Notes: generated by a model from the sequence alone, not told the origin. A stretch of 64,000 nt of DNA from Candidatus Woesearchaeota archaeon (GCA_030651135.1 JAUSCS010000006.1:522160-586159); one strand, 5' to 3'; positions 1-48,024 are shown, counted from the stretch's first letter. Made by a program: numbers and translations.

Positions 1-620
1 ATTGGGAAGGCGAATTCCTTCGGAATAAACTTGACTTCAACTAAATCAGCTGTATTTTTGATCTCATTTCCCCTTTCTCTGTTATCCTCTGAAAACAGCA
101 TTTTAATGGGTATCTTATTTTCTGCCCTTATTTTATGCCACCTCGGAAAGTAATATTTATAGAAATACCTTACTTTTTCTACAAGCTGGGTAGAAGCGCC
201 AAAAACAAAGATTTCCTGCTTTATCTTCAGTATTTCATCCAAAGCAGACATCACGCCCTTGACCCCTTTATAAATAACCGCTTCCTGCCTTTCTTCCCCT
301 ATTTTTCTGAGCTTTTCAATATCAGGCAGAATCTTCCTGGAAAGCTCTATTTTCTCTTTAAGCTCTTTTTCCTGCTTTTCGAGCATGGTTTTTATAAAAT
401 CAGGAGAGGCAGCTTCAAAGTATTTTCTGTTGGCTTTGATTACGAAAACAGCAAGCCCTTTTTCGATCAATCTTGACAAGTTGTCATAAACTATATTTCT
501 GTGCAGCTTTGTTTTTTCGATTATTGAACCAACAGAAACAGAGCCAAGTGTCAGCAATGCAAGATAAACTGTTGACTCATTCTTCGTAAAGCCAAGCTTT
601 TCAAGATCAGCTATGTCCAT
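1..620 (-). CDS. TrmB-family transcriptional regulator (N-terminal wHTH), 5'-partial at window edge
   Basis: Reverse-strand translation from ATG at 620: MDIADLEKLGFTKNESTVYLALLTLGSVSVGSIIEKTKLHRNIVYDNLSRLIEKG..., homologous to the TrmB-like ORFs at 10501, 41827 and 47250. Runs off the window start, so absent from the ORF track. The + ORF 135..476 is its antisense. Confidence 0.6.
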   Translation of the reverse strand, partial: MDIADLEKLGFTKNESTVYLALLTLGSVSVGSIIEKTKLHRNIVYDNLSRLIEKGLAVFVIKANRKYFEAASPDFIKTMLEKQEKELKEKIELSRKILPDIEKLRKIGEERQEAVIYKGVKGVMSALDEILKIKQEIFVFGASTQLVEKVRYFYKYYFPRWHKIRAENKIPIKMLFSEDNRERGNEIKNTADLVEVKFIPKEFAFP

Positions 621-771
621 AAGGAGATCAATCAACAGCTCTTTTTAAGCTTTTCTATATTGCTACCATACATATGGTGACAAAGATTTATATAGTTGGT
701 ATATCACTACTATATCATAATAAATAAGATAAAAGTCGAGTGGACTTAAATCAATCAAGGAGGTAAATAAA

Positions 772-1569
772 ATGGAAAATCAAACAAAAATGGAAACAAA
801 AAAACCCTTGGAGATACTGGTAATAGAAGATACCCCAGAATTTATGGAAGTAGCTAAATCAGTTTATGATAATGACACGAACATTATTCCAAGATATGCT
901 TCAACATATGAAGAGGCAATAAAAATATTAAAGGAGACTGAGGTGCAGTGTGTTATTTCAGATTTATTCTTTCCTTCACAAATTGATTGGAAGGGAAAAT
1001 ATGCTGGTGAAATAGAAGAAAATAGAAACTCTTTCGTAAAAGAACAAAGGGAATTGCTTTTAACAAAGTATTCAGAAGAGGAAATTAAACAAGCAGAAGA
1101 ACAAGTTAAGCAGGGGTTAAAGCCGAAAAATCCCTTTAATTTCGGATCACCAAGAGTGCAGCTAAGTCCTGCGTACGATTTTATAGAATTGATAGAACAA
1201 CAAATCCAACGTACCAGTGAATATCAGGGCCTCCAAGAAAATCCAGCAGGATTGGGGATCGCGTCATATTGCTTGAAAAATCAAGTTCCTTTTGGAATCA
1301 TAAGCCAAGGAGAAAGGCACAGAGGAAATCTAGCTATTGTTAGACAAGCTGTACAAGAAGTCAAAGAATTTAGGAATGTAAATAATGATTTCCTACCATA
1401 CGTTCTTTTTTGCTCGAGTGATTCAAATGGTGAAATGGATAAAAGAAACCCGCAGATATGGAGAGACGCTATTTATGGGGAAGGCAGTCTTTTTGGACCC
1501 TCGCGTCAAAAAATTTTAAAAGATATGTTTGACGCTTATGAACAATTAGAAGAAAAATTAGCAAAATAA
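772..1569 (+). CDS. hypothetical protein
   Basis: 265-aa ORF with strong SD (AAGGAGGT, 7 nt upstream). No recognisable family; N-terminus LEILVIEDTPEF is vaguely receiver-like but lacks canonical motifs. Confidence 0.5.
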   Translation: MENQTKMETKKPLEILVIEDTPEFMEVAKSVYDNDTNIIPRYASTYEEAIKILKETEVQCVISDLFFPSQIDWKGKYAGEIEENRNSFVKEQRELLLTKYSEEEIKQAEEQVKQGLKPKNPFNFGSPRVQLSPAYDFIELIEQQIQRTSEYQGLQENPAGLGIASYCLKNQVPFGIISQGERHRGNLAIVRQAVQEVKEFRNVNNDFLPYVLFCSSDSNGEMDKRNPQIWRDAIYGEGSLFGPSRQKILKDMFDAYEQLEEKLAK

Positions 1570-1593
1570 AAAGGATAAAAAAGAAAGGAGGAA

Positions 1594-2049
1594 ATGAAAA
1601 TGGAAAACAAAATATCGTTGGAACAATTTGAAAGTGAACTTGGAATTTTAGACCAAAAGGAGAGTGTTGATAGGATTAGCACTCTTTTCGAGAAGGTTAG
1701 TCTAGAATCCTTACTTGACGCTTTTAAATCTGCAGAATCTGCATGGATTCAGGAAGGTACCCACGAGATGGGCTTTTCATATAAACAGGTAGTCGCAGCA
1801 AAGAAGGTAGGAAATGCTCTATATTATTTTGAAGTTAAGAAAAATGATGACCCAAATGATGACTCTATTGATATTACGAGAGATGAATCTAAAAGACAAC
1901 CTACATACGACTCCCCCGTATTTGGACCGCAAGTATCTGCGAATAAAGATATCGCGGAACGACTTGTTAGCTATGGAAAATCTTTACTTTGGGAGAATGG
2001 CGAGCTGGAGCATGAACAGATGGGTAGGCGTGTCTACAGAATCAGATAA
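1594..2049 (+). CDS. hypothetical protein
   Basis: 151-aa ORF preceded by GAAAGGAGG. No recognisable motif. Confidence 0.5.
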   Translation: MKMENKISLEQFESELGILDQKESVDRISTLFEKVSLESLLDAFKSAESAWIQEGTHEMGFSYKQVVAAKKVGNALYYFEVKKNDDPNDDSIDITRDESKRQPTYDSPVFGPQVSANKDIAERLVSYGKSLLWENGELEHEQMGRRVYRIR

Positions 2050-2116
2050 ATTGTGCCGGTCATCGGAACAAACTTAATTTTTTTTATTTTTTTAAATTAA
2101 ATCAAACAAGGAAATA

Positions 2117-3106
2117 ATGAAAATGTCAAATAAAAAGATACTTCGTGGGCTGCCTGCTCAATTAGAGGCAGAGAAGAAACTAGGAGAATCCGAGTTAGAT
2201 TATCTTCTCTTCAATCTCCCTTATGCATGTAATCTTAAATGCCCGAAATGTTTTGTAGGAGATAATAAAACAGCCTTACATCTAAGCTTAGATGAAAGAA
2301 TGAGGGTTATGCGAGAGGCAAAAGAGCTTGGCGCAAGAGTTGTTGTAATACCTGGTGAAGGCGAGCCATTGATCGCACCGGCAATAAAAAAAATAGCGAG
2401 CTACAGATATGGTTTAGGGTTAACGGCTGTTGTTTTTACAAATGCTACAATGTTAAATGAAGATTTTGCGCATTTTGCAAAAGATACCGATATTTCATTT
2501 ATAGTCAGTTTGGATTCTTTAGATAAGGGCGCATATGGGTTTTTGACAGGCAGAAAAGACTTTTTCGATGAAACAATAAAGAATATTGAAAGATGCCGCT
2601 CAATTTATGCTGATGAGAATAGCTCCACGCCAAATGGCGATAAAGTTGTAAGACTAGCAGTAAATACTGTTGTAACGAAACAAAATAAAGATGAAATAAG
2701 CAAAATTAAGGATTGGTGTGGTGATGATATGGTGTTTATATGTAATTCTCCTGTAAAAGAAGGAAGAGCAGCACAGTATTGGAAAGAACTTGCTGGGACT
2801 GAAGAAGAATATCGGGAATTAAAACAAGTTGCATTGAAAAATTCAGAAACACATGGGCCAACTTCTGCCTGTTCTGATGGAAAGTGCGCATATCTTTATT
2901 ATGGGCTTACGATAGGAACAGATGGCGATGTTCTTATATGCCCTGACGCAAGAGAAACAAGAGGGTTGATAGGAAATGTTAAAGAAGCCAGCCTCAGAGA
3001 ACTGAATAAAAAGCACAAACAACATCTGAAAGCGTTTTTTGAAGAATGTGGTTATGGGCCCTGTATTGTAAGGCATCCAAAATATAAGGGAGTCGTTAGC
3101 AAATAA
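2117..3106 (+). CDS. radical SAM enzyme with C-terminal Cys-rich auxiliary (SPASM/twitch-like) domain
   Basis: CNLKCPKC = CxxxCxxC. Gly-rich SAM-binding motif VVVIPGEGEPL. C-terminal cysteines CSDGKC...ICPD...CGYGPC. Paralog of the ORF at 42670. Confidence 0.8.
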   Translation: MKMSNKKILRGLPAQLEAEKKLGESELDYLLFNLPYACNLKCPKCFVGDNKTALHLSLDERMRVMREAKELGARVVVIPGEGEPLIAPAIKKIASYRYGLGLTAVVFTNATMLNEDFAHFAKDTDISFIVSLDSLDKGAYGFLTGRKDFFDETIKNIERCRSIYADENSSTPNGDKVVRLAVNTVVTKQNKDEISKIKDWCGDDMVFICNSPVKEGRAAQYWKELAGTEEEYRELKQVALKNSETHGPTSACSDGKCAYLYYGLTIGTDGDVLICPDARETRGLIGNVKEASLRELNKKHKQHLKAFFEECGYGPCIVRHPKYKGVVSK

Positions 3107-9355: not shown

Positions 9356-10405
9356 TTAGGAATTAATTGTCTCAAGAATTTTGTCTTTTTTATTAAGTAA
9401 AAAAGGATATCTCTCGGCATACAGATTAATATTCGCCTGTACTACTTTTTCATAAATATTATGATCGCCAACCCCAAGATAATTTATTTCAGTTCTCAAT
9501 TCTTTTATTAAATTTTTAAATATTTTTTTTTGAGAAGGACTTAATTCCTTATCATTCGAATCATAAACTATAAAACTAATCGCCCTTATAGCATCTGCAA
9601 TAATAGCGGCATTCTCGTCATATAGTTCTTTTTCTTTTCCGCAATCAACTATATCCTTTAATGGTTTGATTAAAGAGATGTTATGAATTTTCTCCTTTTC
9701 TTCAAGCGCCATTAAAATCCTCTCTAACCCGAAAGCAGCTGCTATGACTTCATTTTTTGTCAAACTGATATTGTTTTGCCCATTAAAAATATATTTATAA
9801 TTTAATTGAGAAGCAATTTCAACATATCTTCCATCAACCATTTTATAATAGATTTCAAAACCCGGTCCGCCAGCACAATTTGGTATTCTTGCAATGAAAA
9901 GATTTCGCCTTCCTTTTGTTGGGATTACCTGAGCTTCTCCTAGTAGATTTTTCCAAACATTGGCTATTTTTCTAGTCTCCTGCGAAGTGATGTGGACGTC
10001 ATCAATTTTGCAGTCTTCCAGATAAGTAACTAAGAGTTTATCTTTTTTAAGTCCAAGGACATTCGTTATTAATTCATAAATTTCTTGCGTATTCTTTTCA
10101 AAATTGAGCATATCGGGATTTCCAACCTGTGTAAATTCCATCATTTCAAAGAAGCTTAAATGCCTGTTGCTAATGCCTATTTTTGAAGAATCTGTCTCGC
10201 GCAAACAGCGTTCTGCAAGTGAAAAAGTAATTGGCGGTCTAGGGCATTCATCGCGCAGTATAGGATCGACTATATGATGGCCTGCACTGGGGTTAAATTT
10301 TCCATAACCGCCTCTGGCGTAAAGCAGGCCTACAGATTTTTCTAAAGGATAACCTGACTTTTCTGCAAAGTCAATTACATTTTTGATAATGTTTTTACTA
10401 TTCAT
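9356..10405 (-). CDS. stand-alone class-II aaRS catalytic-core paralog, AlaRS-like
   Basis: [27 protein letters not shown] aligns with the window's AlaRS [34 protein letters not shown] matches motif-3 GMGLER. 349 aa, no tRNA-binding or editing domain. Confidence 0.6.
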   Translation of the reverse strand: [349 protein letters not shown]

Positions 10406-10500: not shown

Positions 10501-11232
10501 ATGGAAGAAATATTCAAGGAATTAGGACTTTCTGATAAGGAAATAAAAGCTTATTTGAAACTCTTAGAGCTTGGGCAAGCGACAACACAGAGGCTTTCAG
10601 AGGTTACAGCAATCAACAGAATAACACTTTATGATATTCTAAGATATCTGATAGAAAAAGGTTTTGTTGGTTATACAATCATTGATAAGGTCAAATATTT
10701 TTATGCAACACCGCCAAGAAATGTGCTAAATATGCTTAAAGAAAAAGAAAGAAAATTTGTTTCTATTCTACCTGAACTAGAGTCAAAGATGGAAATTATA
10801 GGCAAAAGACCAACTTTTCAATTATTCGAAGGAAAGGAAGGCATAAATACAGTAAATGAAGATGTCCTTAGAGAAAAAAACGAGATCCTTGCCTATGGTT
10901 CTTCCCAAATCATAAATAAAATCATAAAATATCAGGCAATAGATTTCATGAAAAAAAGGATAAAAAATAAAATTAAATGGAAAGGAATAAGTGATTCTGG
11001 TTTTAAAGAGCATATTTTTTTTGAAAAACCAGAGTATAAAAAAATAACTGTATTAAAAGTTGACGATTCATTTAAAAATATTGGAACATGGAATTACATT
11101 TACAACAATAAAATTGCAATTTTATCATTTAATAAAGAAAATTTTGTTGGAATTATAATCGAGGATGAAACTATAAATAAAACAGCAAAGTTAATTTTTG
11201 AAAAACTGTGGAAGCAAGCTAAAAAATCTTAA
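10501..11232 (+). CDS. TrmB-family transcriptional regulator
   Basis: N-terminal wHTH LSDKEIKAYLKLLELGQATTQRLSEVTAINRITLYDILRYLIEKGFV. Confidence 0.7.
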   Translation: MEEIFKELGLSDKEIKAYLKLLELGQATTQRLSEVTAINRITLYDILRYLIEKGFVGYTIIDKVKYFYATPPRNVLNMLKEKERKFVSILPELESKMEIIGKRPTFQLFEGKEGINTVNEDVLREKNEILAYGSSQIINKIIKYQAIDFMKKRIKNKIKWKGISDSGFKEHIFFEKPEYKKITVLKVDDSFKNIGTWNYIYNNKIAILSFNKENFVGIIIEDETINKTAKLIFEKLWKQAKKS

Positions 11233-11239
11233 TTATAGA

Positions 11240-12412
11240 ATGATCCAAAAAACAAGCTTTTATTCATGGAAAACAGGCAATCTGGCAAAAGGCTGCAGGC
11301 TTTGCGTAGAAGGATCTAAATTAGTTTTATTTGCAACTGGGCTTTGCCCCAGAAGCTGCTTTTACTGCCCTTTATCAGAGCAGAAAAAGAACAAAGATGT
11401 TGTTTATGCAGATGAGTGGAAGATCGAAAAAGACAGAGACATAATTGCAGAAGCAAAATCAATAAGCGCAAAAGGAGCTTCTTTGACTGGAGGCGATCCG
11501 TTCATAGTTTTAAACAGAAGCATTAAATACATTAAATTATTAAAAAAAGCCTTTGGAAAGAAATTTCATATACATCTTTACACACTTCCTGAATTATTAA
11601 CGCTCAATAAATTAAAAAAATTCTATAATGCGGGTTTGGACGAGATAAGGCTGCATCCTGATATTTTCAACAGGAAGAATTGGAATAAAATAGATTTAGT
11701 CAAGAAATTTAAATGGCAGATTGGAGTTGAAATTCCAGTCATTCCCGGTCACAAAAAGAAAATCATGGAACTGATTGATTATTTTGCGGATAAAATCAAT
11801 TTTTTAAATCTAAATGAACTGGAAATATCAGACACAAATGCAGACAAATTATTGAAAATGGGCTTTAGGTGCAAAGACGAAGTTTCTTATGGAATAAAAG
11901 GAAGCGAAGAGCTGGCTTTTGAATTATTAAAACACATCAGTAAAAAACATCCAAAGCCGAATGTCCATTACTGCACTGCAACTTTAAAGGACAAAGTTCA
12001 GTTGGCAAACAGGATAAAAAGAAGGGCAAAAAACACTGCAAAAGCTTATGACATTGTCAGTGAAGAAGGCATGCTGATCAGGGGCGCTGTTTATTTGCCT
12101 GATTTAAAGCCAGGATTTAGTTATAGAAAAAGATTGGAAAATATTTTAAAAAATAAAAAAATTAAAAATAAGCTTATAAAGAAATTAAACACAATAAAAA
12201 ATAATTTAAAAAAAGACTTTAAAATAAAAAACAGCTTAATAGATATTGACGAGCAGAAATTAAGGATATTGGCATCAATGAAAATAATTGATAAAATAAA
12301 AAATAAAATAATATTGAAAGGCCTCTGCCCGGCAATTGTTGAAGAATATCCTACATGGGATCAGACTGAAATAGATATCGAGTTTTTGCGCAATAAAGCA
12401 AAAACTATTTAA
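11240..12412 (+). CDS. radical SAM domain protein (pyruvate formate-lyase-activase-related, COG2108-like)
   Basis: CPRSCFYC = CxxxCxxC, TGGDPF. ATG at 11240 is in frame and avoids overlap with the upstream gene (track start 11198). Confidence 0.65.
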   Translation: MIQKTSFYSWKTGNLAKGCRLCVEGSKLVLFATGLCPRSCFYCPLSEQKKNKDVVYADEWKIEKDRDIIAEAKSISAKGASLTGGDPFIVLNRSIKYIKLLKKAFGKKFHIHLYTLPELLTLNKLKKFYNAGLDEIRLHPDIFNRKNWNKIDLVKKFKWQIGVEIPVIPGHKKKIMELIDYFADKINFLNLNELEISDTNADKLLKMGFRCKDEVSYGIKGSEELAFELLKHISKKHPKPNVHYCTATLKDKVQLANRIKRRAKNTAKAYDIVSEEGMLIRGAVYLPDLKPGFSYRKRLENILKNKKIKNKLIKKLNTIKNNLKKDFKIKNSLIDIDEQKLRILASMKIIDKIKNKIILKGLCPAIVEEYPTWDQTEIDIEFLRNKAKTI

Positions 12413-39103: not shown

Positions 39104-39210
39104 AAGGGCCCGGTGGGACTTTCAAAGCCAAAGTTTTGAACCTTCAGCCAATTTGAACCCACAATCTTCCGCTCTGCAGGCAGACGCCTTGCCGGATTCG
39201 ACCACGGACC
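39104..39210 (-). tRNA. tRNA-Cys (GCA) with ~33-nt intron in the T-loop
   Basis: Acceptor GGGTCCG/CGGGCCC, anticodon stem TCTGC/GCGGA, loop CTGCAGA, variable AGATT, T-stem GTGGG/CCCAC enclosing a 40-nt loop that begins TTCAAAT. Confidence 0.6.
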
Positions 39211-39880
39211 CTTTCAGTAACCACAATCGACTTCTTAATGTTATTTTCGGCTTATAATAACCCAATCTCCTCCAAAGTAAATATTTTGTTAAATTTTTTT
39301 CTGTACTGAATCCAATCTCATTTACCCATTTCTTTAACATCATTGGCCCACTTAAATAGAGCCTTATCGTAGTATCAGATACTACAGAATTGCTAGTTAC
39401 TTTAAAATCTTTTTGTTTTAAGATGTTTTTTATTTGATTTAACAATTTTTCACTGCATGTCTTTATTTCTATTCTTGGGTAAGTGGGGTATTTGAATTTT
39501 TTACTTTTTGAAAAATATAAAGAGCCATCTGTTTCAAATATTCCGCGAATTATATGTTTGGAATATTTCCATTGTAAAAATTGTTTAGGTATTTCTGTAT
39601 TATGAGATTTATTTTTAAATTTTATTTTAATCTCATTTATCAAATATTCTACAAACTTTTTATTATTGAACTCTAATCTTAAGGATTCACCAAGTTTTTC
39701 TTTTTTGATTCTGGTTAGCGGCCTTTTTTTTGTTAGTTTATAAAGCAAGTTTGAAATCTTTAAAAAGTAATCTTTTTGCTCTTTGGCATTACCAGCGAAT
39801 TCAACCCTATATGTTCTGGGAGGGTTATAAATAATAGAACCATCTCCTATAAAAGCACCAATAAATTCATAAAAGTTCAT
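39122..39880 (-). CDS. free-standing double-motif LAGLIDADG endonuclease-like protein; 3' end overlaps tRNA-Cys
   Basis: FIGAFIGDGS and IRGIFETDGSLYF. Paralog of 32895..33902. The last ~30 codons read through the tRNA-Cys gene. Confidence 0.65.
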   Translation of the reverse strand: MNFYEFIGAFIGDGSIIYNPPRTYRVEFAGNAKEQKDYFLKISNLLYKLTKKRPLTRIKKEKLGESLRLEFNNKKFVEYLINEIKIKFKNKSHNTEIPKQFLQWKYSKHIIRGIFETDGSLYFSKSKKFKYPTYPRIEIKTCSEKLLNQIKNILKQKDFKVTSNSVVSDTTIRLYLSGPMMLKKWVNEIGFSTEKNLTKYLLWRRLGYYKPKITLRSRLWLLKGSVVESGKASACRAEDCGFKLAEGSKLWL

Positions 39881-40036: not shown

Positions 40037-41824
40037 TTATGCTTTAATCAAAACCGCCTTTATCCTTCTCACACCGGCAGCAACGCTTTCTTCCTTTATT
40101 ATCTTGAAATGCCCCAATTCAGAAGTATTTTTGACATGCGGACCGCCGCAGATCTCAACAGAAAAATCTCCAATGGAATAAACAAAGACTTTTTCTCCGT
40201 ATTTGTGCTCAAACACGCCCTGCGCCCCTTTTTTCTTTGCCTCATCCACAGTCATCTCTTCCTGCTTAACAGGCAGTGCTTCCTTTATTTTTTCATTAAT
40301 CAAATCTTCAACTTCTTTAAGCTCTTGCTCTGTCAATTTCCGGTCAAAATTAAAATCAAATCTTAATCTTTCCGGCGTTATGTTTGATCCTCTCTGGAAA
40401 ATATCCTTTTTCCCCAAAACAACTCTTAATGCCTGATTCAGCATATGAGTTGCTGTATGCAGCTTTGTTGTCTCTTCTGAAGAATCTGCAAGTCCGCCTT
40501 TGAATTTTTTCTCAGCCCCGATCCTGCTCAATTCCTGGTGCTTCTCAAATTCTTTATTAAATCCAGTTACATCAACGCTGACATTTTTTTCTTTTGCCAG
40601 CTCAGCTGTCATTTCAATCGGAAAGCCAAAGCTCTGGAATAGCAGGAATGCATTCTCGCCATCAATCTCTTTTTTATTTTTTATGATTTTTTCAAATTCT
40701 TTCAGCCCATTTTCAAGAGTTTTCCTGAATTTTTCATCTTCTTTTTTCAGTTCATCCAATATAAAATCCTTATTTTTTTCCAGTTCTTTATAATCGCTTT
40801 TGTGCAGCTCAATAGTTATTTTTGCCAATTCTGACAGAAATTCCTTTTCAATGCCCAATAGCTTTCCGTGCCTTATTGATCTTCTGATAAATCTCCTTAA
40901 GATATATCCCTGGTCAACATTCGAGGGAGCAATTGCCTTTTCATCTCCCAATATGAAAGTTGCAGCTCTTATATGGTCTGTTATGATTCTTACTGATTTT
41001 AGCTGCTCTTCATTTGGCTCCTTGATCTTGGCAATTTCCTTTATTTTGTCAATTATCGGCTTGAATGTCTCAATTTCATAGACTATTTTCTTTCCCTGCA
41101 GGACAGCAGCTGTCCTTTCAACACCCATTCCAGTATCAACATTTTGCTGCTTTAGCTTCTCGAATCTTCCATCTTTTGTTTTGTTGTACTGCATGAAAAC
41201 ATCATTCCATATCTCAAAATATTTCCCGCAAAAGCAGCCAGGCTTGCAATCATTGCTGCATTTTTCTTTTCCTGTATCGTAAAACATTTCACTATCTGGG
41301 CCGCAAGGACCGGTTTCGCCAGCAGGACCCCACCAATTATCTTTTTTCGGCAAAAAATAAATTCTTTCTTTCGGAATTCCAACTGAGAGCCAGATCTTGG
41401 CAGATTCCTCGTCTTTTGGCGCATCATTATCCCCTTTAAAGCACGTTACTGATATCTTTTCCTTATTTATTCCAAGCCATTTTCTGTCTGTCAGGAATTC
41501 ATAGCTCCATTCTATTGCTTCCTTTTTCCAGTAATCCCCTAATGACCAGTTTCCAAGCATTTCAAAGAAAGTAAGATGAGAAGAATCTCCGACTTCATCA
41601 ATATCATCTGTTCTTAAGCATTTCTGAACATCCACAAGCCTTTTTCCCTGTGGATGCGGCTGGCCTATTAAAAAAGGAACTAAAGGATGCATTCCAGCTG
41701 CTGTGAACAATACAGTGGGATCATGCTCCGGGATCAAAGAAGCAGAAGCTATTAGCTTGTGGCCTTTTTCGCTGAAAAACCCGAAATACAGATCTTTCAG
41801 CTCTTTTGATGTTAGTTGTTTCAT
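40037..41824 (-). CDS. alaS: alanyl-tRNA synthetase (catalytic + tRNA-recognition + editing domains; lacks C-Ala domain)
   Basis: Class II motifs (HLTFFEMLGNWS, GMGVERT). Editing-domain HTATHMLNQAL and CGGPHV. Confidence 0.9.
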   Translation of the reverse strand: MKQLTSKELKDLYFGFFSEKGHKLIASASLIPEHDPTVLFTAAGMHPLVPFLIGQPHPQGKRLVDVQKCLRTDDIDEVGDSSHLTFFEMLGNWSLGDYWKKEAIEWSYEFLTDRKWLGINKEKISVTCFKGDNDAPKDEESAKIWLSVGIPKERIYFLPKKDNWWGPAGETGPCGPDSEMFYDTGKEKCSNDCKPGCFCGKYFEIWNDVFMQYNKTKDGRFEKLKQQNVDTGMGVERTAAVLQGKKIVYEIETFKPIIDKIKEIAKIKEPNEEQLKSVRIITDHIRAATFILGDEKAIAPSNVDQGYILRRFIRRSIRHGKLLGIEKEFLSELAKITIELHKSDYKELEKNKDFILDELKKEDEKFRKTLENGLKEFEKIIKNKKEIDGENAFLLFQSFGFPIEMTAELAKEKNVSVDVTGFNKEFEKHQELSRIGAEKKFKGGLADSSEETTKLHTATHMLNQALRVVLGKKDIFQRGSNITPERLRFDFNFDRKLTEQELKEVEDLINEKIKEALPVKQEEMTVDEAKKKGAQGVFEHKYGEKVFVYSIGDFSVEICGGPHVKNTSELGHFKIIKEESVAAGVRRIKAVLIKA

Positions 41825-41826
41825 TG

Positions 41827-42594
41827 TTAAGGGATTTTTATAGGCGTATTTAAATGTTTTTTATTTTTATAAGGCCTTGCTATGTTCCACATTAATTCAA
41901 ACTGTTTCCTATATGACTCAGCAACTTCTTTATTTCTTATGATAATTAAATAATCAGGATTTCCCCAGACAATTGTTTGTACGTTATCTCTATAAATCTG
42001 TACGGGATTAGGGTTAAAATATCTCTTAGGAATTTTTCTATATTTAGATGTTCCTCTTTGAAATATTCCTTTATCGCCCTCCTTGATAATCACTCTCTCT
42101 TTTATTTTAAACCTAATCATATCTCTTTCATATTGGTCGCAAATCGTTTTGTATTTTGCGAAGGGTATAGATTCCTCAACTGCAGTGCAAAGAATTTCTC
42201 CTCCAATTGATTTCAAATTATCTATTATATCTCTAAGAGCAATTCTAACAACATTTTTTCCTTTGTAGGTTTCTACGGAAAGAGATTGTTGTGCTTGTTC
42301 ATTTAATTTTGTTAGTTGAGGAAGAATTTGCTTATAATTCTCTGTTCTTTCATTAAGGAATTCTAAGATTAATTTTGGATCTATTGCTTTGAATAATTTT
42401 GTTTTTCCCTCTTGAACAGAACTAACAAAACCTTTTTCCATTAATCTTTTGAGGGAATCATATGTAACTTGTCTGTATAATCCTGCTTTTTCTGCTAATT
42501 CATAGGCCGACATTTGTCCATTTGTAAGCAGAGCTAAGTATACTTCGGCTTCATAATTTGTTAATCCAATTTGAGTTAAAACTGCTTTATCCAT
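41827..42594 (-). CDS. TrmB-family transcriptional regulator
   Basis: LTNYEAEVYLALLTNGQMSAYELAEKAGLYRQVTYDSLKRLMEKGFV. Divergent from the radical SAM gene at 42670. Confidence 0.7.
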   Translation of the reverse strand: MDKAVLTQIGLTNYEAEVYLALLTNGQMSAYELAEKAGLYRQVTYDSLKRLMEKGFVSSVQEGKTKLFKAIDPKLILEFLNERTENYKQILPQLTKLNEQAQQSLSVETYKGKNVVRIALRDIIDNLKSIGGEILCTAVEESIPFAKYKTICDQYERDMIRFKIKERVIIKEGDKGIFQRGTSKYRKIPKRYFNPNPVQIYRDNVQTIVWGNPDYLIIIRNKEVAESYRKQFELMWNIARPYKNKKHLNTPIKIP

Positions 42595-42669
42595 ATTAGT
42601 ATGATATCATACGAATTAAGTATATATAAATCTGTCTGACTACTTCTTAGTGGATAAAGGTGAATAAAT

Positions 42670-43671
42670 ATGGAAAAAACAAAAAAATTACTTGTTGGAA
42701 ATCCAAACCAACTTGAAGTAGATGGACAAATAGGAGAAGATGAATTATCTTATGTAGTTATGAACTTGCCGTTTGGCTGTAATTATAGCTGTTCTAAATG
42801 TTACAGAGATGATAATAAGTCTTTTGATAGTGTTAATCTGGACACAAGATTGGACATTATTTCACAAGCAAGAGATTTAGGCGCAAAAGTTTTTTGTATT
42901 CCTGGTGAAGGGGAGCCATTAACAAATAAAGATTTAACAATGCAGTTAATAGATCATGCCAATGCAGTAGGATTAATAGCCATCCTATATACCAATGGCA
43001 GTTTTCTTAATCAGGAGACAGTAAATGAATTATTCAATAAGAACGTGACTTTAATTACAAGTTTTGACTCATTAAATCCCGAAACGTATCTTAAATTAAC
43101 AGGATTTAAGGGATTTGATAGAGTGATGAGAAATCTTGAAAATGTCAGAGGAACATACAAAACAGGAAATAGAACAAGAGAAAATGGTTTGATTGAGACA
43201 AGATGGGGAGTAATCACAATCATTAACCAGCACAATAAAGGAGAAATTCCGAAGATAAGGGAATTTTGCGGAGATGATGCATTTTTTATCTGTAATTATC
43301 CCATAAACAAGGGCAGAGCAAAAAGTGTTTGGGATTCGTATGTAGGTACTCAGGAGAATCTAATAGAATTAATTAGAACTGCAAATATGTATACTGATAC
43401 ACTTGTAGCAGGACTTAGTTCGCCAACAAGAAGCGGACAATGTATAATGCTAAATAATGGCATTACGATTGATACTAATGGAAATGCTCATGCATGCCCG
43501 GCTATGGTCGATACAAACTTAGGAAATATAGCAGATACTTCTGTTGGTGAGATTTGGCGGAAAACCAAAGAATACACACAGTCTAAAGGAAATCCTCTTT
43601 GCTTAGCCAGAGACATAAAGCAGTATTGTAAAAAAGCCAACATCTTGAGTGTTGGAGAGATGGTTATTTAG
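42670..43671 (+). CDS. radical SAM enzyme with C-terminal Cys-rich auxiliary domain (paralog of 2117..3106)
   Basis: CNYSCSKC, VFCIPGEGEPL. C-terminal Cys at CIML, ACPAM, CLARD, YCKK. Confidence 0.8.
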   Translation: MEKTKKLLVGNPNQLEVDGQIGEDELSYVVMNLPFGCNYSCSKCYRDDNKSFDSVNLDTRLDIISQARDLGAKVFCIPGEGEPLTNKDLTMQLIDHANAVGLIAILYTNGSFLNQETVNELFNKNVTLITSFDSLNPETYLKLTGFKGFDRVMRNLENVRGTYKTGNRTRENGLIETRWGVITIINQHNKGEIPKIREFCGDDAFFICNYPINKGRAKSVWDSYVGTQENLIELIRTANMYTDTLVAGLSSPTRSGQCIMLNNGITIDTNGNAHACPAMVDTNLGNIADTSVGEIWRKTKEYTQSKGNPLCLARDIKQYCKKANILSVGEMVI

Positions 43672-43784
43672 GCGACCCCATTAGTTTTTTAGAAATTGCC
43701 CTTTTCTATTTCAGGACTTCAAATTAGCAATAACAAATAAAACAACAAAAGTAGGCGGGCTTAAAACGCAGGAGTAAAATAAAA

Positions 43785-44429
43785 ATGAAGCAAGACATAG
43801 TTGTGTTTGATGTGTTAGGTCCGATATACCAGTATGCTGAAGTAAATGGCAGACTTGAGAACTGCATTCCATTTGCATATGAAAAAATAAAAGAGCTGCA
43901 TCCAGAGGAATATGAACGTGCAAAAAATGATTTTGCTTTTGCAGCAGAAATGGAATTTAGGCTTTTTAAAGAAGGCGCAATTACCTGCATTGCAACGCCA
44001 TTTGCAGTCGATACTTTGCTTTATCTAAAGGAAAAAGGCATTATGCCTGTTGTTGCTTCTGCCGGAACTGATGAAACTCTTAGATTCACTTTGGACACAA
44101 TAGTTGATAATTATAACAGGCAGAATGGAACAAAGCTAGTTGCAAATGAGGTAATTCCTTACAAAAATCTTATCTCAACAAGCCCCATAGGGAGCAAAAA
44201 AGATCCTAAGACGTGGCAGACAGCAGTTTATGATAATTTTGGAGCAAATAATAGGATATTGCTTGGTTATGAAGACAGCATTAATAATTGCCTTGCTCTG
44301 GCCAATGGGCTGAATTGCACAGGATTGCATATCGTCTCTGAAAATTGTAATTTGTCAATTGTGCAATATAACCCTACGATAATCAGGGGAACAATGGAGC
44401 AGCATTATAAAATGTTAAGAGGCGGATAA
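43785..44429 (+). CDS. hypothetical protein (possibly HAD-like)
   Basis: 214 aa. N-terminal VVFDVLGPI is weakly HAD motif-I-like. Confidence 0.45.
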   Translation: MKQDIVVFDVLGPIYQYAEVNGRLENCIPFAYEKIKELHPEEYERAKNDFAFAAEMEFRLFKEGAITCIATPFAVDTLLYLKEKGIMPVVASAGTDETLRFTLDTIVDNYNRQNGTKLVANEVIPYKNLISTSPIGSKKDPKTWQTAVYDNFGANNRILLGYEDSINNCLALANGLNCTGLHIVSENCNLSIVQYNPTIIRGTMEQHYKMLRGG

Positions 44430-44430
44430 A

Positions 44431-44802
44431 ATGAGGCTCATAGCAAAAGGTCTTGGTGTAAGCAAAGGGGGAGTGCAAGGCAGAGTTAAGATCATAAAAA
44501 GTGTTAAAGATTATGCAAAGCTAAAGAAGGGCGATATCCTTGTAACCAGGTTGACAGACCCAACAATGACTGCCATCATGGGCAGAGCTGCCGGAATAAT
44601 CTGCGACATTGGCGGCCTTACATCACACCCTTCTGTTTTGAGCAGGGAAATGGGAATTCCGTGCATTGTATCTGCAAAAGGCATAATTACAGGAAAGCCA
44701 ATAACTGAGCTTTTAAAAGAGGGTCAGGAAATTGAAATGAATGGTGAAAATGGAGAAATCTTTCTTAAAGATGAATCATGGAATTTGAGGTGGAAATTAT
44801 GA
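44431..44802 (+). CDS. stand-alone PEP-utilizing enzyme mobile (swivel phosphohistidine) domain protein
   Basis: GGLTSHPSVLSREMGIPCIV matches the PEP-utilisers phosphohistidine motif (GGxTSHAAIxARExGIP). Starts 2 nt after the previous ORF. Confidence 0.7.
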   Translation: MRLIAKGLGVSKGGVQGRVKIIKSVKDYAKLKKGDILVTRLTDPTMTAIMGRAAGIICDIGGLTSHPSVLSREMGIPCIVSAKGIITGKPITELLKEGQEIEMNGENGEIFLKDESWNLRWKL

Positions 44803-45863
44803 ACTGGCTTGATTTGTGGATGGACTCCATAGCCGCTTCATTGGGGAATATGGATCTGGCTACTTTGGAGCCTTTTAACTTTGATAATATGCATTCTCTT
44901 TATTCAAAAGAATGGGTCAATAGATTCCTTCTTGCCATAAGCAGAAGAAAACAATTAGATGTTTCTTTTGCAAGGCTTGCAAAAATGATAACAGGGCCTT
45001 CGCATCTCAGAGCCCAGTATTATTTCATGCTTGCCGACTTAAAGTTTGCAGGAATAAAAAAGGAGGAAAGATTGGAAATTGCAAAATTTTTTGATAGCAT
45101 TATAAATGAAAAGTCAAAGGGGGATATTTATGGTTTCAGAAGCAACATTGCTCATACAGGCAAAGAGATCGTAGAATTATGCAGAAAAATAAGTTTTGAA
45201 AAAGCAAATCCTGAAATTGCAAGATTTCTTGGGAAGCTGTATACAGCGGCATTTCATCTTGTAAATGGGCTTTATACAGACATATATACAGATTATGGCA
45301 TCGAAAACTTTGGAGAATATGATGTAAGCAGTGTTTTTGGGCCTGGCCACATGATGGTCATAAAGTCATTTAGCGATCTTAAGCCAATGGGCATATGGCC
45401 TGAGATAAGAGATTCGCCGTGTAAAACACTTAACATCTATGCCATATATAAAAATGTAAAATTCAGGTGTGATTCGATATCCTGCCATTCTGTTTACGAA
45501 GGAGATCCTATTGCTGGCATGGCCTATTATGCTGTCGGTGTTGATGGCATTCTCATTAACTCAATAGAAAAATTGGAAAAAATAAGAGAAGCCATAGAAA
45601 GGTGCTCAATAGAGCAATGGAAGAGGCTCATAAGCCAAGAAAAAGAGCAGCTTAAAATAAAAGCGCTTATGCAAAGATGCTATGTTCTGAAAAACATGTT
45701 CGAATTGCTGGGCATAGAATGGAAACCAAGCACAGGCATGATCAATGCTGTTAAAGATAAGCCGCTTAGCTCCCCTTTCAAAATCATACCGAAAGATGAA
45801 AAAGAGAGAAGGTTATTTTGGAAGAAATTTTTTGATCCAAGACTCGAGATTTATCCTTCATAG
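44778..45863 (+). CDS. hypothetical protein
   Basis: 361 aa. Overlaps the preceding ORF by 25 nt, suggesting translational coupling. Confidence 0.45.
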   Translation: MEFEVEIMNWLDLWMDSIAASLGNMDLATLEPFNFDNMHSLYSKEWVNRFLLAISRRKQLDVSFARLAKMITGPSHLRAQYYFMLADLKFAGIKKEERLEIAKFFDSIINEKSKGDIYGFRSNIAHTGKEIVELCRKISFEKANPEIARFLGKLYTAAFHLVNGLYTDIYTDYGIENFGEYDVSSVFGPGHMMVIKSFSDLKPMGIWPEIRDSPCKTLNIYAIYKNVKFRCDSISCHSVYEGDPIAGMAYYAVGVDGILINSIEKLEKIREAIERCSIEQWKRLISQEKEQLKIKALMQRCYVLKNMFELLGIEWKPSTGMINAVKDKPLSSPFKIIPKDEKERRLFWKKFFDPRLEIYPS

Positions 45864-45930
45864 CTACTAAAATCCAAATATATTCTTCATCATAATAAAA
45901 TTTAAATACTTCTACTCCAAAATAACAAAT

Positions 45931-46311
45931 ATGGCAAGCAATTTTGTCGATCTGATCATTGAAAAAGGGATGGACAAGGTAAACATTTCTATGCTGGATG
46001 AAAAGAACAGGAAAATGATCCTTGGCGATGCAGGCAGCCAGCTGGTTAGAATGGGCAAGTTTGAAGATGGTGTGAAAGCACTTGCATTGGCTGGAGAAAA
46101 AGAAAAACTGATTAAACTGGCAGAAGACTTTGCGAAAGAGAAGCAGATAAGGCTGGCAGCATTGGCAATAGAGAATTCCGGCGATATTGCAAGGATCGAA
46201 GCCATTGCAGCAGAATGTGTAAACCTCGGATTAATGGCAGAGGCATTAAAGCTCTACAAGGCAGCAGGGAATGAGATGATGACCAATTTCGTGCTTGAGA
46301 ATTTTAAGTGA
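45931..46311 (+). CDS. hypothetical protein
   Basis: 126 aa, Ala/Leu-rich helical. Confidence 0.35.
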   Translation: MASNFVDLIIEKGMDKVNISMLDEKNRKMILGDAGSQLVRMGKFEDGVKALALAGEKEKLIKLAEDFAKEKQIRLAALAIENSGDIARIEAIAAECVNLGLMAEALKLYKAAGNEMMTNFVLENFK

Positions 46312-47161
46312 ATTTGATGTTTTGTTCCTGATTTCTTGAAAACTCTTCTACTAGCTTTAGTATGGTGTAGCTTACAATTTCTGAAGGGTTATCTAAAAGT
46401 CTTAGTTTAAAATTTGCAACCATCCCTATGGAGTTAGCGAAAGTATTGGAAAAGTAAGTATATCCTTTAAGGAAATATCCATCAAAATTATTAATGATAT
46501 TTTTAATGTTGTCAGCAGAGTCAAAAAACAGCTCTTTTTCCATAATTGTGGGGTGATGCACACAATGGACGGTTCTAACAGCATTCACAAACTTTGCCCT
46601 AAGCCTTGATCTTTCATGGCCAAACTTCATAGGTTTAACAAAAAAGGCATTGCCCAAGTCAAAAGCCAAATCATTACATCTAGACCCCTTAATATGCACA
46701 TATTCTTCATAGTTGCAAAATACTCTATTAAGAACAATCAATGGCCCTATTGGCCCTCCTTCAGAATATTTGAATGTCCTGTTAGTTTTGTCAATCTCGT
46801 ATCTGTTGATAGTTTCTTCATACGATAAAGTGCTATAGACATTTTTGAAATCTTTAGATAAAAACAAAGCATTACCGGTACCAACGATGCCTTCAACTTC
46901 ACCAAATTGAGAGAATGCCTCTAAAATGTTTATTGAACCGACGCCCAGGGTCAGATATACTCTGCGCTTATACAAAAATCCTGCACCTTGCATAAGTGTG
47001 CAGTTGTCACGCTCGCTGCTTTTGTAAAGCAGTTTCCGCTGTGCATCTTTATGCCCCATTAATTTCATATCTGTAAGGTCTTGTTCGTGTAGAGGGCATT
47101 TTGTCAATCTGGATCTCCAAGCATACTGGTCATAAGATGCATCAATAATGCAGTTTATCAT
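46304..47161 (-). CDS. hypothetical protein
   Basis: 285 aa with conserved-looking Cys/His (HCVHHP, GSRCND) but no confidently recognised family. Confidence 0.45.
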   Translation of the reverse strand: MINCIIDASYDQYAWRSRLTKCPLHEQDLTDMKLMGHKDAQRKLLYKSSERDNCTLMQGAGFLYKRRVYLTLGVGSINILEAFSQFGEVEGIVGTGNALFLSKDFKNVYSTLSYEETINRYEIDKTNRTFKYSEGGPIGPLIVLNRVFCNYEEYVHIKGSRCNDLAFDLGNAFFVKPMKFGHERSRLRAKFVNAVRTVHCVHHPTIMEKELFFDSADNIKNIINNFDGYFLKGYTYFSNTFANSIGMVANFKLRLLDNPSEIVSYTILKLVEEFSRNQEQNIKFT

Positions 47162-47249
47162 AATGGAATGATAACATGTATGTATTTTAATTTATGTTGT
47201 ACCATCATAGTACAACTATAGTAAACTTTAAAAACTCCAACATATTTCA

Positions 47250-47984
47250 ATGCCCATGTTTGATGGCAATATTTTAAAAAGTGCAGGACTTACCGAGAAT
47301 GAAACCGAGGTTTATGTCATATTATTGCAGTTAAACGAATGTTTGGCTTCAGATATTGCCAGACGTACAAAAATATCCAGACCCCACGTTTATGATGCGC
47401 TAAATAAATTACTGCATAAGGGTTTGGCATCTTATGTATTGAAGAATGGTAGCAGATACTTTATGCCTACAGATCCCAATAAACTTCTAGAACATCTTAA
47501 GGACCAAGAAAAAATTCTTCAACAAAAATACCTATCTATACAATCCATAATGCCGCAACTCAAATCACTGCGCCAACCTTTGGCGAATAAGCCGCTAGTT
47601 GAAGTCTTGGAAGGTAGTGAGGGCATTAAGACTATACTCAATGATATAATCAAGACTGGAAAAGAGATGTTGGCTTTTAATACTCTAGGCGAGGAATTTA
47701 AGAAGTATGTTCCAGAACACTTCCTTAAACGGTATTTTATTGAACGTGAAAAATATCATATTAGATCTAGGCAATTCTATGTCGAGGGTGCCCAAATATA
47801 TCGGCATACCATGGTTACTTACAAAAAATTGCAACAATCCTTTAATCCAGTAGCATTATTTGTTTATGGCAATAAGGTTGTAATGTTTGTACTGACAGAT
47901 ACGCCATTAACTATAAGAATAGAAAGCAAGGATGTTGCCAAACTGTATAAAGAACAATTTGAAAAGATGTGGAAAGAACTCTGA
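47250..47984 (+). CDS. TrmB-family transcriptional regulator
   Basis: LTENETEVYVILLQLNECLASDIARRTKISRPHVYDALNKLLHKGLA. Confidence 0.7.
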   Translation: MPMFDGNILKSAGLTENETEVYVILLQLNECLASDIARRTKISRPHVYDALNKLLHKGLASYVLKNGSRYFMPTDPNKLLEHLKDQEKILQQKYLSIQSIMPQLKSLRQPLANKPLVEVLEGSEGIKTILNDIIKTGKEMLAFNTLGEEFKKYVPEHFLKRYFIEREKYHIRSRQFYVEGAQIYRHTMVTYKKLQQSFNPVALFVYGNKVVMFVLTDTPLTIRIESKDVAKLYKEQFEKMWKEL

Positions 47985-48024
47985 TTGCTTTTTTAATTAA
48001 AAAAGAAAAAATAAAATAATAAAC

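Follow-up and report, generated by a model that had tools for sequence, protein, structure and literature searches.

Swivel-domain phosphotransferases include phosphoenolpyruvate (PEP) synthase, pyruvate phosphate dikinase (PPDK), enzyme I of the PEP-dependent phosphotransferase system (PTS), the glucan dikinases and the rifampin and phenol dikinases, and few partner domains of the swivel are known. Rifampin phosphotransferase (RPH) works with three stations, an ATP-grasp domain, a domain with the carrier histidine and an acceptor-binding domain (PMC4844700). In the split dikinases HpeHI, PpsAB (phenylphosphate synthase) and CreHI, the ATP-grasp subunit works in trans and no stable complex is formed (PMC12167813). 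Here we describe a locus in a 64,000-nucleotide stretch of DNA from a Candidatus Woesearchaeota archaeon (the entire stretch is referred to as the window) where a swivel domain is encoded as a free protein between two partners. We favour, with a probability of roughly 55 %, the view that three adjacent genes at 43785-45863 encode a three-protein split phosphohistidine phosphotransferase of the PEP-synthase/rifampin-phosphotransferase (dikinase) superfamily with a putative new acceptor domain. This interpretation draws on the linkage of swivel and partner in all 16 loci compared, gene fusions, an intact carrier histidine motif, overlapping genes, the conservation of the partner family fam354, a dedicated haloacid dehalogenase (HAD)-like protein and conserved regulation. 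The genes are:

43785..44429, plus strand: fam214, an atypical HAD-superfamily protein of 214 aa (beta-phosphoglucomutase-like subfamily I)
44431..44802, plus strand: a stand-alone PEP-utilizer mobile (swivel) domain of 123 aa (PF00391)
44799..45863, plus strand: fam354, a new family, 354 aa, the proposed second-substrate (acceptor) catalytic domain

With HpeHI, PpsAB and CreHI this system would share a phosphohistidine swivel mechanism spread over several polypeptides, and the fam354 loci of bacteria of the candidate phyla radiation (CPR) hold proteins of that RPH-like type together with a single PPDK_N. It differs from them, and from RPH, in that the acceptor domain is unrelated to the rifampin-binding domain and the swivel is not fused. 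RPH is furthermore a single polypeptide with another domain order, although one fused relative of our proteins (P0180) does combine ATP-grasp, swivel and fam354. Because the defining tests were negative for PEP synthase/PPDK, for RPH-like and two-component dikinases and for canonical HAD phosphatases, the system is placed outside all three; by analogy, it may be viewed as a dikinase/PTS-type phosphohistidine shuttle in which the carrier is free, the partner fold is new and a HAD protein is dedicated to the system. Our literature search found no description of a stand-alone swivel system in DPANN archaea or CPR bacteria.

The three genes are tightly packed. A single nucleotide separates the fam214 stop codon from the swivel ATG, which is preceded by GAGGCGG, and the start of fam354 overlaps the swivel stop codon as ATGA, with a GAGGTGG Shine-Dalgarno sequence 6 nt upstream. 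The start at 44799 is that of the gene caller and of NCBI (MDO8740579.1), so that the open reading frame (ORF) initially given as 361 aa most likely encodes 354 aa. An ORF check of the window recovered every ORF of the initial annotation in its place, and together with Pfam it confirmed the radical SAM (S-adenosylmethionine) enzyme, the swivel protein, the unknown ORFs and the two TrmB regulators of the larger block that had been flagged there. Public annotation of the block, which lies on a 731,608-bp contig of a Woesearchaeota MAG (metagenome-assembled genome), is limited to a 'radical SAM protein', a 'PEP-utilizing enzyme' and four 'hypothetical proteins', and the 214-, 361-, 126- and 285-aa products had zero matches in Pfam, NCBIfam, PADLOC and PHROGs.

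The swivel protein matches PF00391 over the whole model (positions 2-72; 78.2 bits against a Pfam cut-off of 23.1) and retains an intact phospho-carrier motif (...CDIGGLTSHPSVLSREMGIPC..., GGLTSH with His66), the motif of swivel domains being T/S-x-x-G-G-x-x-x-H (PMC12167813). Its nearest model is the central domain of PEP synthase (NF005057, 101 bits with a cut-off of 598), and TIGR01418 gave 93 bits with a cut-off of 740 (NCBIfam). The resemblance to PpsA and PPDK extends to the order partner-swivel-partner, which mirrors their N-domain, swivel and C-domain, but PPDK_N and the PEP-utilizers_C TIM barrel are lacking here and the equivalog cut-offs are missed by about 6-fold. As in the transfer from PTS Enzyme I to HPr, a swivel His domain would pass phosphate on without an ATP-grasp domain, but the C-terminal PEP-binding domain of EI, HPr and EII are all missing here, and the swivel reaches 33 bits against the EI model. 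PF01326 had zero Pfam matches among the operon proteins, and a profile hidden Markov model (HMM) built from one PPDK_N protein of the CPR locus L008 detected no PPDK_N-like ORF in the 64-kb window. The initial annotation had argued that a swivel domain on its own implies a split phosphotransfer enzyme, and this was borne out, with the adjacent unknown proteins as the partners.

The swivel and fam354 are linked. A first homolog search with the 354-aa protein returned DPANN relatives, of which two have a swivel domain fused at the N-terminus. We then read the neighbourhoods of relatives, scored with our own profile HMMs, at 16 informative distinct loci (numbered with the prefix L). The swivel gene lies directly upstream of fam354 in 16/16 loci, and a fam214 homolog stands immediately ahead of the swivel in 9; swivel and fam354 occur without fam214 in L002, L018, L022, L008 and L021. 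A divergent TrmB gene precedes the operon in 11 loci. The radical SAM gene and the 126-aa gene of the block are each found in 2 loci, the window and L010, another Woesearchaeota metagenome-assembled genome (MAG), while the 285-aa ORF and the second TrmB gene (TrmB2) are present in the window alone. Neighbourhood conservation, which the initial annotation had proposed as a check, thus holds for fam214, swivel and fam354 and does not hold for the radical SAM, 126-aa and 285-aa genes. L010 shows the same arrangement at 90 % DNA identity and the core recurs in distant lineages, which argues that the arrangement is not due to chance. As judged from these neighbourhoods, the conserved unit is 43785-45863, narrower than the block originally flagged but with stronger support.

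Two of these loci show further features at the swivel/fam354 pair. In a Micrarchaeota MAG (L006:3968-5008, identical to L020), a decayed fam354 duplicate, in fragments of 105 and 188 aa, is located between the swivel and the intact fam354 gene, and a COG1926-like phosphoribosyltransferase gene overlaps the swivel start. In L022:5453-8986, labelled Woesearchaeota, swivel and fam354 are found between MurG-like and MraY-like genes, a context that looks like a bacterial-type mur cluster.

Gene fusions point in the same direction. Among 166 fam354 proteins, the majority (139) are stand-alone, while 15 are fusions of swivel and fam354. Rarer architectures are f313 plus fam354 (3/166), f313 plus swivel plus fam354 (2/166), fam354 plus PPDK_N (1/166, P0143) and swivel plus PPDK_N plus fam354 (1/166, P0180); f313 is a family encountered next to the swivel in other loci, and its fusions with fam354, with or without swivel, are P0039, P0059, P0061, P0077 and P0086. 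Four proteins carry two fam354 matches, including two full tandem duplications (P0037, P0040), and one has an unassigned C-terminal extension (P0141). The PPDK_N fusions were confirmed with Pfam (PF00391 and PF01326). At two CPR loci, L008 and L021, PPDK_N is encoded beside the swivel/fam354 pair. The fusions and the PPDK_N neighbours argue that fam354 is one station of a swivel-type phosphotransferase, with the ATP-grasp as the other station in at least some members.

The two CPR clusters (L008:108-10503, identical to L009, and L021:14-4768) contain one PPDK_N, four to five RPH-like proteins consisting of a substrate domain and a C-terminal swivel, and the free swivel/fam354 pair. This layout suggests that a single ATP-grasp may charge many swivel carriers. 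The L008 cluster also encodes a His_Phos_1 histidine phosphatase and a LMWPc low-molecular-weight phosphatase. In some loci an optional module of f393, a swivel of about 100 aa and f313 lies between TrmB and the fam214, swivel and fam354 genes (L002:5237-7657, L013:4638-7011 and L027:3608-6029), and the syntenic locus L028 is without it; f393 and f313 have no Pfam match.

When 1.84 billion cluster representatives were searched with a full HMMER profile, 471 were assigned to the fam354 family at E<=1e-3, and 357 at the stricter E<=1e-10. A pattern-limited scan that took a single genome from each of 185,579 species found at least 8 fam354 loci, labelled Woesearchaeota, Nanoarchaeota, Micrarchaeota, two Methanosarcinales MAGs and the CPR lineage Candidatus Staskawiczbacteria; a scan of viral contigs found no fam354. 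The family is apparently limited to DPANN archaea and CPR bacteria, organisms with reduced genomes. In 147 diverse members the conserved positions are P32, R78, D116, D168, G179, Y181, P203, W207, Y224, H237, D256, W315 and P317, a set which suggests a catalytic or ligand pocket. Sequence and profile searches of the PDB returned nothing for fam354. The initial annotation had advised a fold check, and the AlphaFold2 (AF2) model obtained for fam354 is confident; compared with PDB structures it matched no known fold, TIM barrels included, so that the predicted fold appears to be new relative to the PDB. A derivation of fam354 from the rifampin-binding domain or from the ATP-grasp domain was rejected, as an all-against-all comparison by hhalign of fam354, f313, f393, the RPH-like N-domain, PPDK_N and fam214 revealed no relationship, with all probabilities <2 %.

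One of the conserved residues, His237, is kept in 81 % of the 147 members and might itself be a phosphorylation target. PTS swivel domains phosphorylate proteins. The system could then be a regulatory one, where the swivel phosphorylates fam354 (for example at His237) or another protein, as in EI-HPr of the PTS or as in VadK, reported to be a PPDK-derived protein kinase with a regulatory role (PMC13400623). We regard this as most improbable, as fam354, with its 354 aa and its conserved acidic, arginine and aromatic residues, looks like an enzyme pocket, and both the HAD partner and the sugar-phosphate neighbours point to metabolism.

The assignment of the 214-aa protein as HAD-like, made in the initial annotation, is supported by fold and motifs. 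It has a Rossmannoid HAD fold with a cap, and in 16 sequences the residues of motifs II-IV are kept, with K138, E163 and D164 invariant and S92 nearly so. Motif IV is YEDS, resembling the LEDS of beta-phosphoglucomutase. Motif I, in contrast to beta-phosphoglucomutase-type HAD proteins (subfamily IA), is D-x-L-G-P (D9-V-L11-G-P) with an invariant Asp9 and an invariant Leu at +2, so that it departs from D-x-D-x-T/V by the replacement of the Asp+2 general acid with Leu11. No Pfam HAD model was matched, and sequence and profile searches of the PDB gave weak HAD matches alone (E ~0.3). A further difference from the beta-phosphoglucomutase type is that fam214 is found solely ahead of a swivel gene, being immediately upstream in 9/9 readable contexts and always ahead of swivel plus fam354. 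A Micrarchaeota HAD_2 protein was considered as an equivalent and dismissed, as it has an N-terminal hydrophobic segment and belongs to a different family.

The altered motif I bears on an alternative where no ATP-grasp is required: the free swivel would dock alternately on fam354 and fam214 and transfer the phosphoryl group between His66 and Asp9, like a soluble PTS or a phosphorelay. A phosphorylated metabolite, or else the acceptor, would be bound by fam354, and Asp9 of fam214 would either accept or give up the phosphoryl group. A HAD protein without the Asp+2 general acid is expected to form a long-lived aspartyl phosphate, and fam214 retains the nucleophile Asp together with Ser, Lys and Glu-Asp, while Leu invariantly takes the place of the acid. 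The order N-partner, swivel, C-partner is strict in the 9/9 fam214 contexts and is mirrored by f393-swivel-f313, and fam214 occurs nowhere but ahead of the swivel. As the general acid is lost and no ATP-grasp gene was found in any archaeal locus, fam214 may itself be the second docking station. However, none of the 17 fam214 relatives is a HAD-swivel fusion, the five loci listed above have swivel and fam354 without fam214, and the PPDK_N fusions imply that at least some members use ATP. To our knowledge there is also no precedent for a transfer from swivel to HAD, and we therefore judge such a relay to be rather unlikely.

What the enzyme acts on is hinted at by the surroundings. TrmB control, the beta-phosphoglucomutase-like HAD protein, RpiB (its gene overlaps the fam354 stop codon in L019), PEPCK and Ldh/Mdh (downstream of the operon in L011), PGM/PMM with the oxidative pentose-phosphate genes G6PD, 6PGL and 6PGD (around L002) and the phosphoribosyltransferase of L006 indicate that the substrate is probably a sugar, a sugar phosphate or a central-carbon metabolite. 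In the genome studied here, enolase is encoded about 6 kb downstream.

Some of these neighbours would also fit a derived split PEP synthase or PPDK, with fam354 as a non-homologous stand-in for the PEP/pyruvate TIM barrel at a TrmB-controlled PEP-pyruvate node. In Thermococcales, gluconeogenic genes, ppsA among them, are under the control of TrmB-family regulators. The swivel's nearest match is to the PEP synthase central domain (101 bits against NF005057), P0180 has the three functional parts of PpsA with fam354 replacing the C-terminal domain, and PEPCK, Ldh/Mdh (adjacent in L011) and the enolase mentioned above are genes of the appropriate kind. Against this, fam354 is structurally unlike TIM barrels, the dedicated HAD partner is left without a role, archaeal loci have no ATP-grasp gene and the metabolic neighbours vary from locus to locus, so that we consider this proposal unlikely.

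For the split dikinase with a new acceptor domain, we propose the following course of events. The swivel protein would carry the phosphoryl group on His66, and fam354 (by Arg78, Asp116, Asp168, His237 and Asp256) would bind the second substrate and exchange the phosphoryl group with the swivel histidine. In the bacterial and fused versions the PPDK_N ATP-grasp would charge the swivel (ATP -> AMP + Pi). In the archaeal operons, which have no ATP-grasp gene nearby, we infer that charging occurs in trans by an ATP-grasp encoded elsewhere. The fam214 protein, translationally coupled to the swivel, would most likely process the phosphorylated product, acting as a beta-phosphoglucomutase-type phosphatase or mutase. 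Gene and domain identities, synteny, fusions, the novelty of the fold, the operator and the exchange of the regulatory cassette are observations, whereas we infer which way the phosphoryl group flows, what donates it, what the HAD protein does and what the substrate is.

Several observations weigh against this scheme. No PPDK_N gene is found within +/-6-8 kb of any archaeal locus, nor anywhere in the window. The PPDK_N fusions are rare (2/166), occurring in distant members with a degenerate HSxYEGD motif. The loss of the Asp+2 acid in all fam214 members fits poorly with the role of an ordinary phosphatase or mutase, and the substrate hints each come from single loci. Finally, in L010 the cognate TrmB operator is followed first by the radical SAM gene, and a functional link or co-regulation of radical SAM gene and operon is possible in that sublineage.

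The role that the initial annotation had given to a TrmB regulator found support outside the window. In other lineages the TrmB proteins next to the operon are about 370-390 aa long and mutually orthologous (43-77 % identical), that of L010 being 77 % identical to its counterpart in L011 and 43-50 % to the others. The palindrome GTTGTCG-N6-CGACAAC is present in exactly one copy per divergent intergenic region in 10/10 loci with a cognate TrmB (L010:5841-5856, L011:1172-1187, L014:6936-6951, L013:4558-4573, L027:3515-3530, L028:5906-5921, L002:4799-4814, L018:1051-1066, L005:7027-7042 and L019:5884-5899), where it sits between two opposed TATA-like boxes. Its retention across loci with proteins of about 45 % identity argues for a real site, and it is the predicted operator of the long TrmB. 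Between the TATA box on the operon side and the first gene there is a further palindrome, TTACT-N4-6-AGTAA.

The window departs from this pattern. GTTGTCG-N6-CGACAAC is absent from its whole length, even at 2 mismatches, and the operon is flanked by the following features:

41827..42594, minus strand: TrmB1, 255 aa (PF01978, 72 bits), divergent to the radical SAM gene
42599..42612, no strand: candidate TrmB1 operator, the perfect palindrome GTATGATATCATAC in the TrmB1/radical SAM intergenic region, with a TATATATAAA box beside it
42670..43671, plus strand: radical SAM enzyme of 333 aa with a partial SPASM/twitch-like C-terminal domain (PF04055, PF13186)
45931..46311, plus strand: helical protein of 126 aa, sublineage-specific, its homolog solely in L010 among the examined loci
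46304..47161, minus strand: orphan ORF of 285 aa, a single-member cluster outside the conserved unit
47250..47984, plus strand: TrmB2, 244 aa (PF01978, 53 bits), a TrmB paralog on a window-specific segment

TrmB1 shares 33 % identity with the long TrmB that takes its position in L010 and 90 % with that of loci which have the radical SAM gene alone (L023). The palindrome GTATGATATCATAC is identical at the same place in L023 and has a single exact copy in the window; elsewhere in the window there are matches with 2 mismatches alone, at chance level, one of these at 708-719 in a paralogous TrmB/radical SAM intergenic region. When the window was compared with related loci by blastn, 42657-46314 aligned with L010 at 90 %, 41931-42657 did not align (regulator and promoter replaced), and 46314-47999, with the 285-aa ORF and TrmB2, was absent from L010, while 41885-43725 aligned with L023 at 85 %. 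The operon's own regulator and promoter have been swapped for the TrmB1 cassette in this genome, and TrmB1 is not the cognate regulator of the operon. In the ancestral operon the long TrmB would act through GTTGTCG-N6-CGACAAC between the divergent TATA boxes; here, TrmB1 and GTATGATATCATAC have replaced both ancestral regulator and operator, with the radical SAM gene heading the gene string. The bracketing of the block by TrmB genes turned out to be incidental, as TrmB2 and the 285-aa ORF are absent from L010 and TrmB1 is not cognate.

The radical SAM gene has a history of its own. It accompanies the swivel operon in 2/16 loci, the window and L010 (a relative of about 90-91 %), while relatives of 87-90 % identity (L023-L026) keep the divergent TrmB and have unrelated genes downstream, with no 214/swivel/354 genes. 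Since the radical SAM relatives keep TrmB without the operon, and the operon mostly occurs without the radical SAM gene, the block is best described as two juxtaposed units, a TrmB/radical SAM pair and the fam214-swivel-fam354 operon. On this synteny the radical SAM gene is an accessory and separable neighbour outside the core. The first 54 nt past its stop codon (43672-43725), with a T6 run, are shared with the radical-SAM-only locus L023, and the spacer up to the 214-aa gene is 113 nt in the window and 64 nt in L010, about 50 nt shorter. These spacer data are consistent with recombination of a TrmB1 and radical SAM cassette into this position, and the T-rich, L023-like sequence raises the question whether the operon is still co-transcribed with the radical SAM gene.

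The initial annotation had combined radical SAM/SPASM enzyme, HAD-like protein, swivel and unknown proteins into one module for metabolite or peptide modification or for cofactor maturation. The genes are indeed co-directional and closely spaced both in the window and in L010, where the radical SAM gene comes first behind the cognate TrmB operator. Yet the radical SAM gene is missing from 14/16 swivel/fam354 loci, its relatives of 87-90 % identity have TrmB and no operon, a T-rich stretch follows its stop codon, and two other TrmB-radical SAM pairs in the window lack swivel genes. Nor does either spacer of the block (43672-43784 and 45864-45930) contain a plus-strand ORF of at least 20 aa that might encode a small precursor, which leaves a reading as a ribosomally synthesised and post-translationally modified peptide (RiPP) system unsupported. 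A single module is thus largely refuted by synteny, and we hold it to be very unlikely.

The radical SAM protein itself matches PF04055 (49 bits) and the SPASM model PF13186 (31 bits) in Pfam, and has the cluster motif C37-x3-C41-x2-C44 and the C-terminal cysteines C258-x12-G-x4-C275, C311 and C320. The CX2CX5CX3C block of the full seven-Cys SPASM motif is absent from the sequence, which marks the C-terminal domain as a partial (twitch-like) SPASM. All NCBIfam equivalogs scored far under their cut-offs, the best being the tungsten-cofactor maturase with 64.6 bits against 380, and identity with MoaA, AhbC/D, NirJ, PqqE, W-cofactor maturase or viperin was rejected on these cut-offs; a sequence and profile search of the PDB gave no relative. 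The initial annotation had allowed for a housekeeping ortholog without conserved neighbours. No clear MoaA, AhbD or NirJ ortholog emerged, so that this part did not hold, while the other did, as there is no conserved radical SAM co-occurrence beyond close relatives. A defence-island reading was also discarded, the defence-system and phage libraries giving just generic radical SAM core similarity to viperins.

There are four TrmB paralogs in the window in all, including the two further TrmB-radical SAM pairs without swivel genes:

1-635, minus strand: TrmB fragment, divergent to a receiver-like 265-aa gene, a 151-aa gene and the radical SAM/SPASM paralog at 2117-3106 (genes at 772-3106, plus strand)
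10501-11232, plus strand: TrmB, overlapping a 404-aa radical SAM gene at 11198-12412, plus strand

The paralog at 2117-3106 is 37.5 % identical to the radical SAM protein of the block. At the other end of the block, the 126-aa gene may have its own promoter, with a TTTAAATA box that precedes the ATG by about 25 nt. A TTGTAC-N7-GTACAA palindrome at 47197-47215, upstream of TrmB2, differs from both other operators and is a candidate autoregulatory site of TrmB2. The block is adjoined by a 595-aa alanyl-tRNA synthetase (AlaRS; 40037-41824, minus strand), and a 349-aa protein (9356-10405, minus strand) is an additional match to the class II AlaRS catalytic core (PF01411). A free-standing LAGLIDADG-type ORF of 252 aa (39122-39880, minus strand) lies between a GCD14-type methyltransferase gene and the alanyl-tRNA synthetase gene, at a position where L010 has merely a spacer of about 290 nt.

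Woesearchaeota MAGs encode glucokinase in 2/9 cases, and pfk and fba are mostly absent (PMC11606122). These gaps make a non-orthologous sugar kinase a testable idea rather than a result, and the relay between fam354 and fam214, if true, could account for the phosphorylation of sugars or sugar phosphates, a step apparently missing from most Woesearchaeota genomes. In the system described here the carrier is a free protein, and its obligate partner family comprises some 470 sequence clusters without a Pfam or NCBIfam model or a structural relative in the PDB; the families f313 and f393 suggest that swivel partners are more varied than those explored so far. Identification of the substrate would bring a new catalytic fold into the enzymology of phosphoryl transfer. 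The central metabolism of DPANN archaea and CPR bacteria appears to be rich in gaps, with many genes annotated as 'hypothetical', and the identity of this substrate could close one of them.

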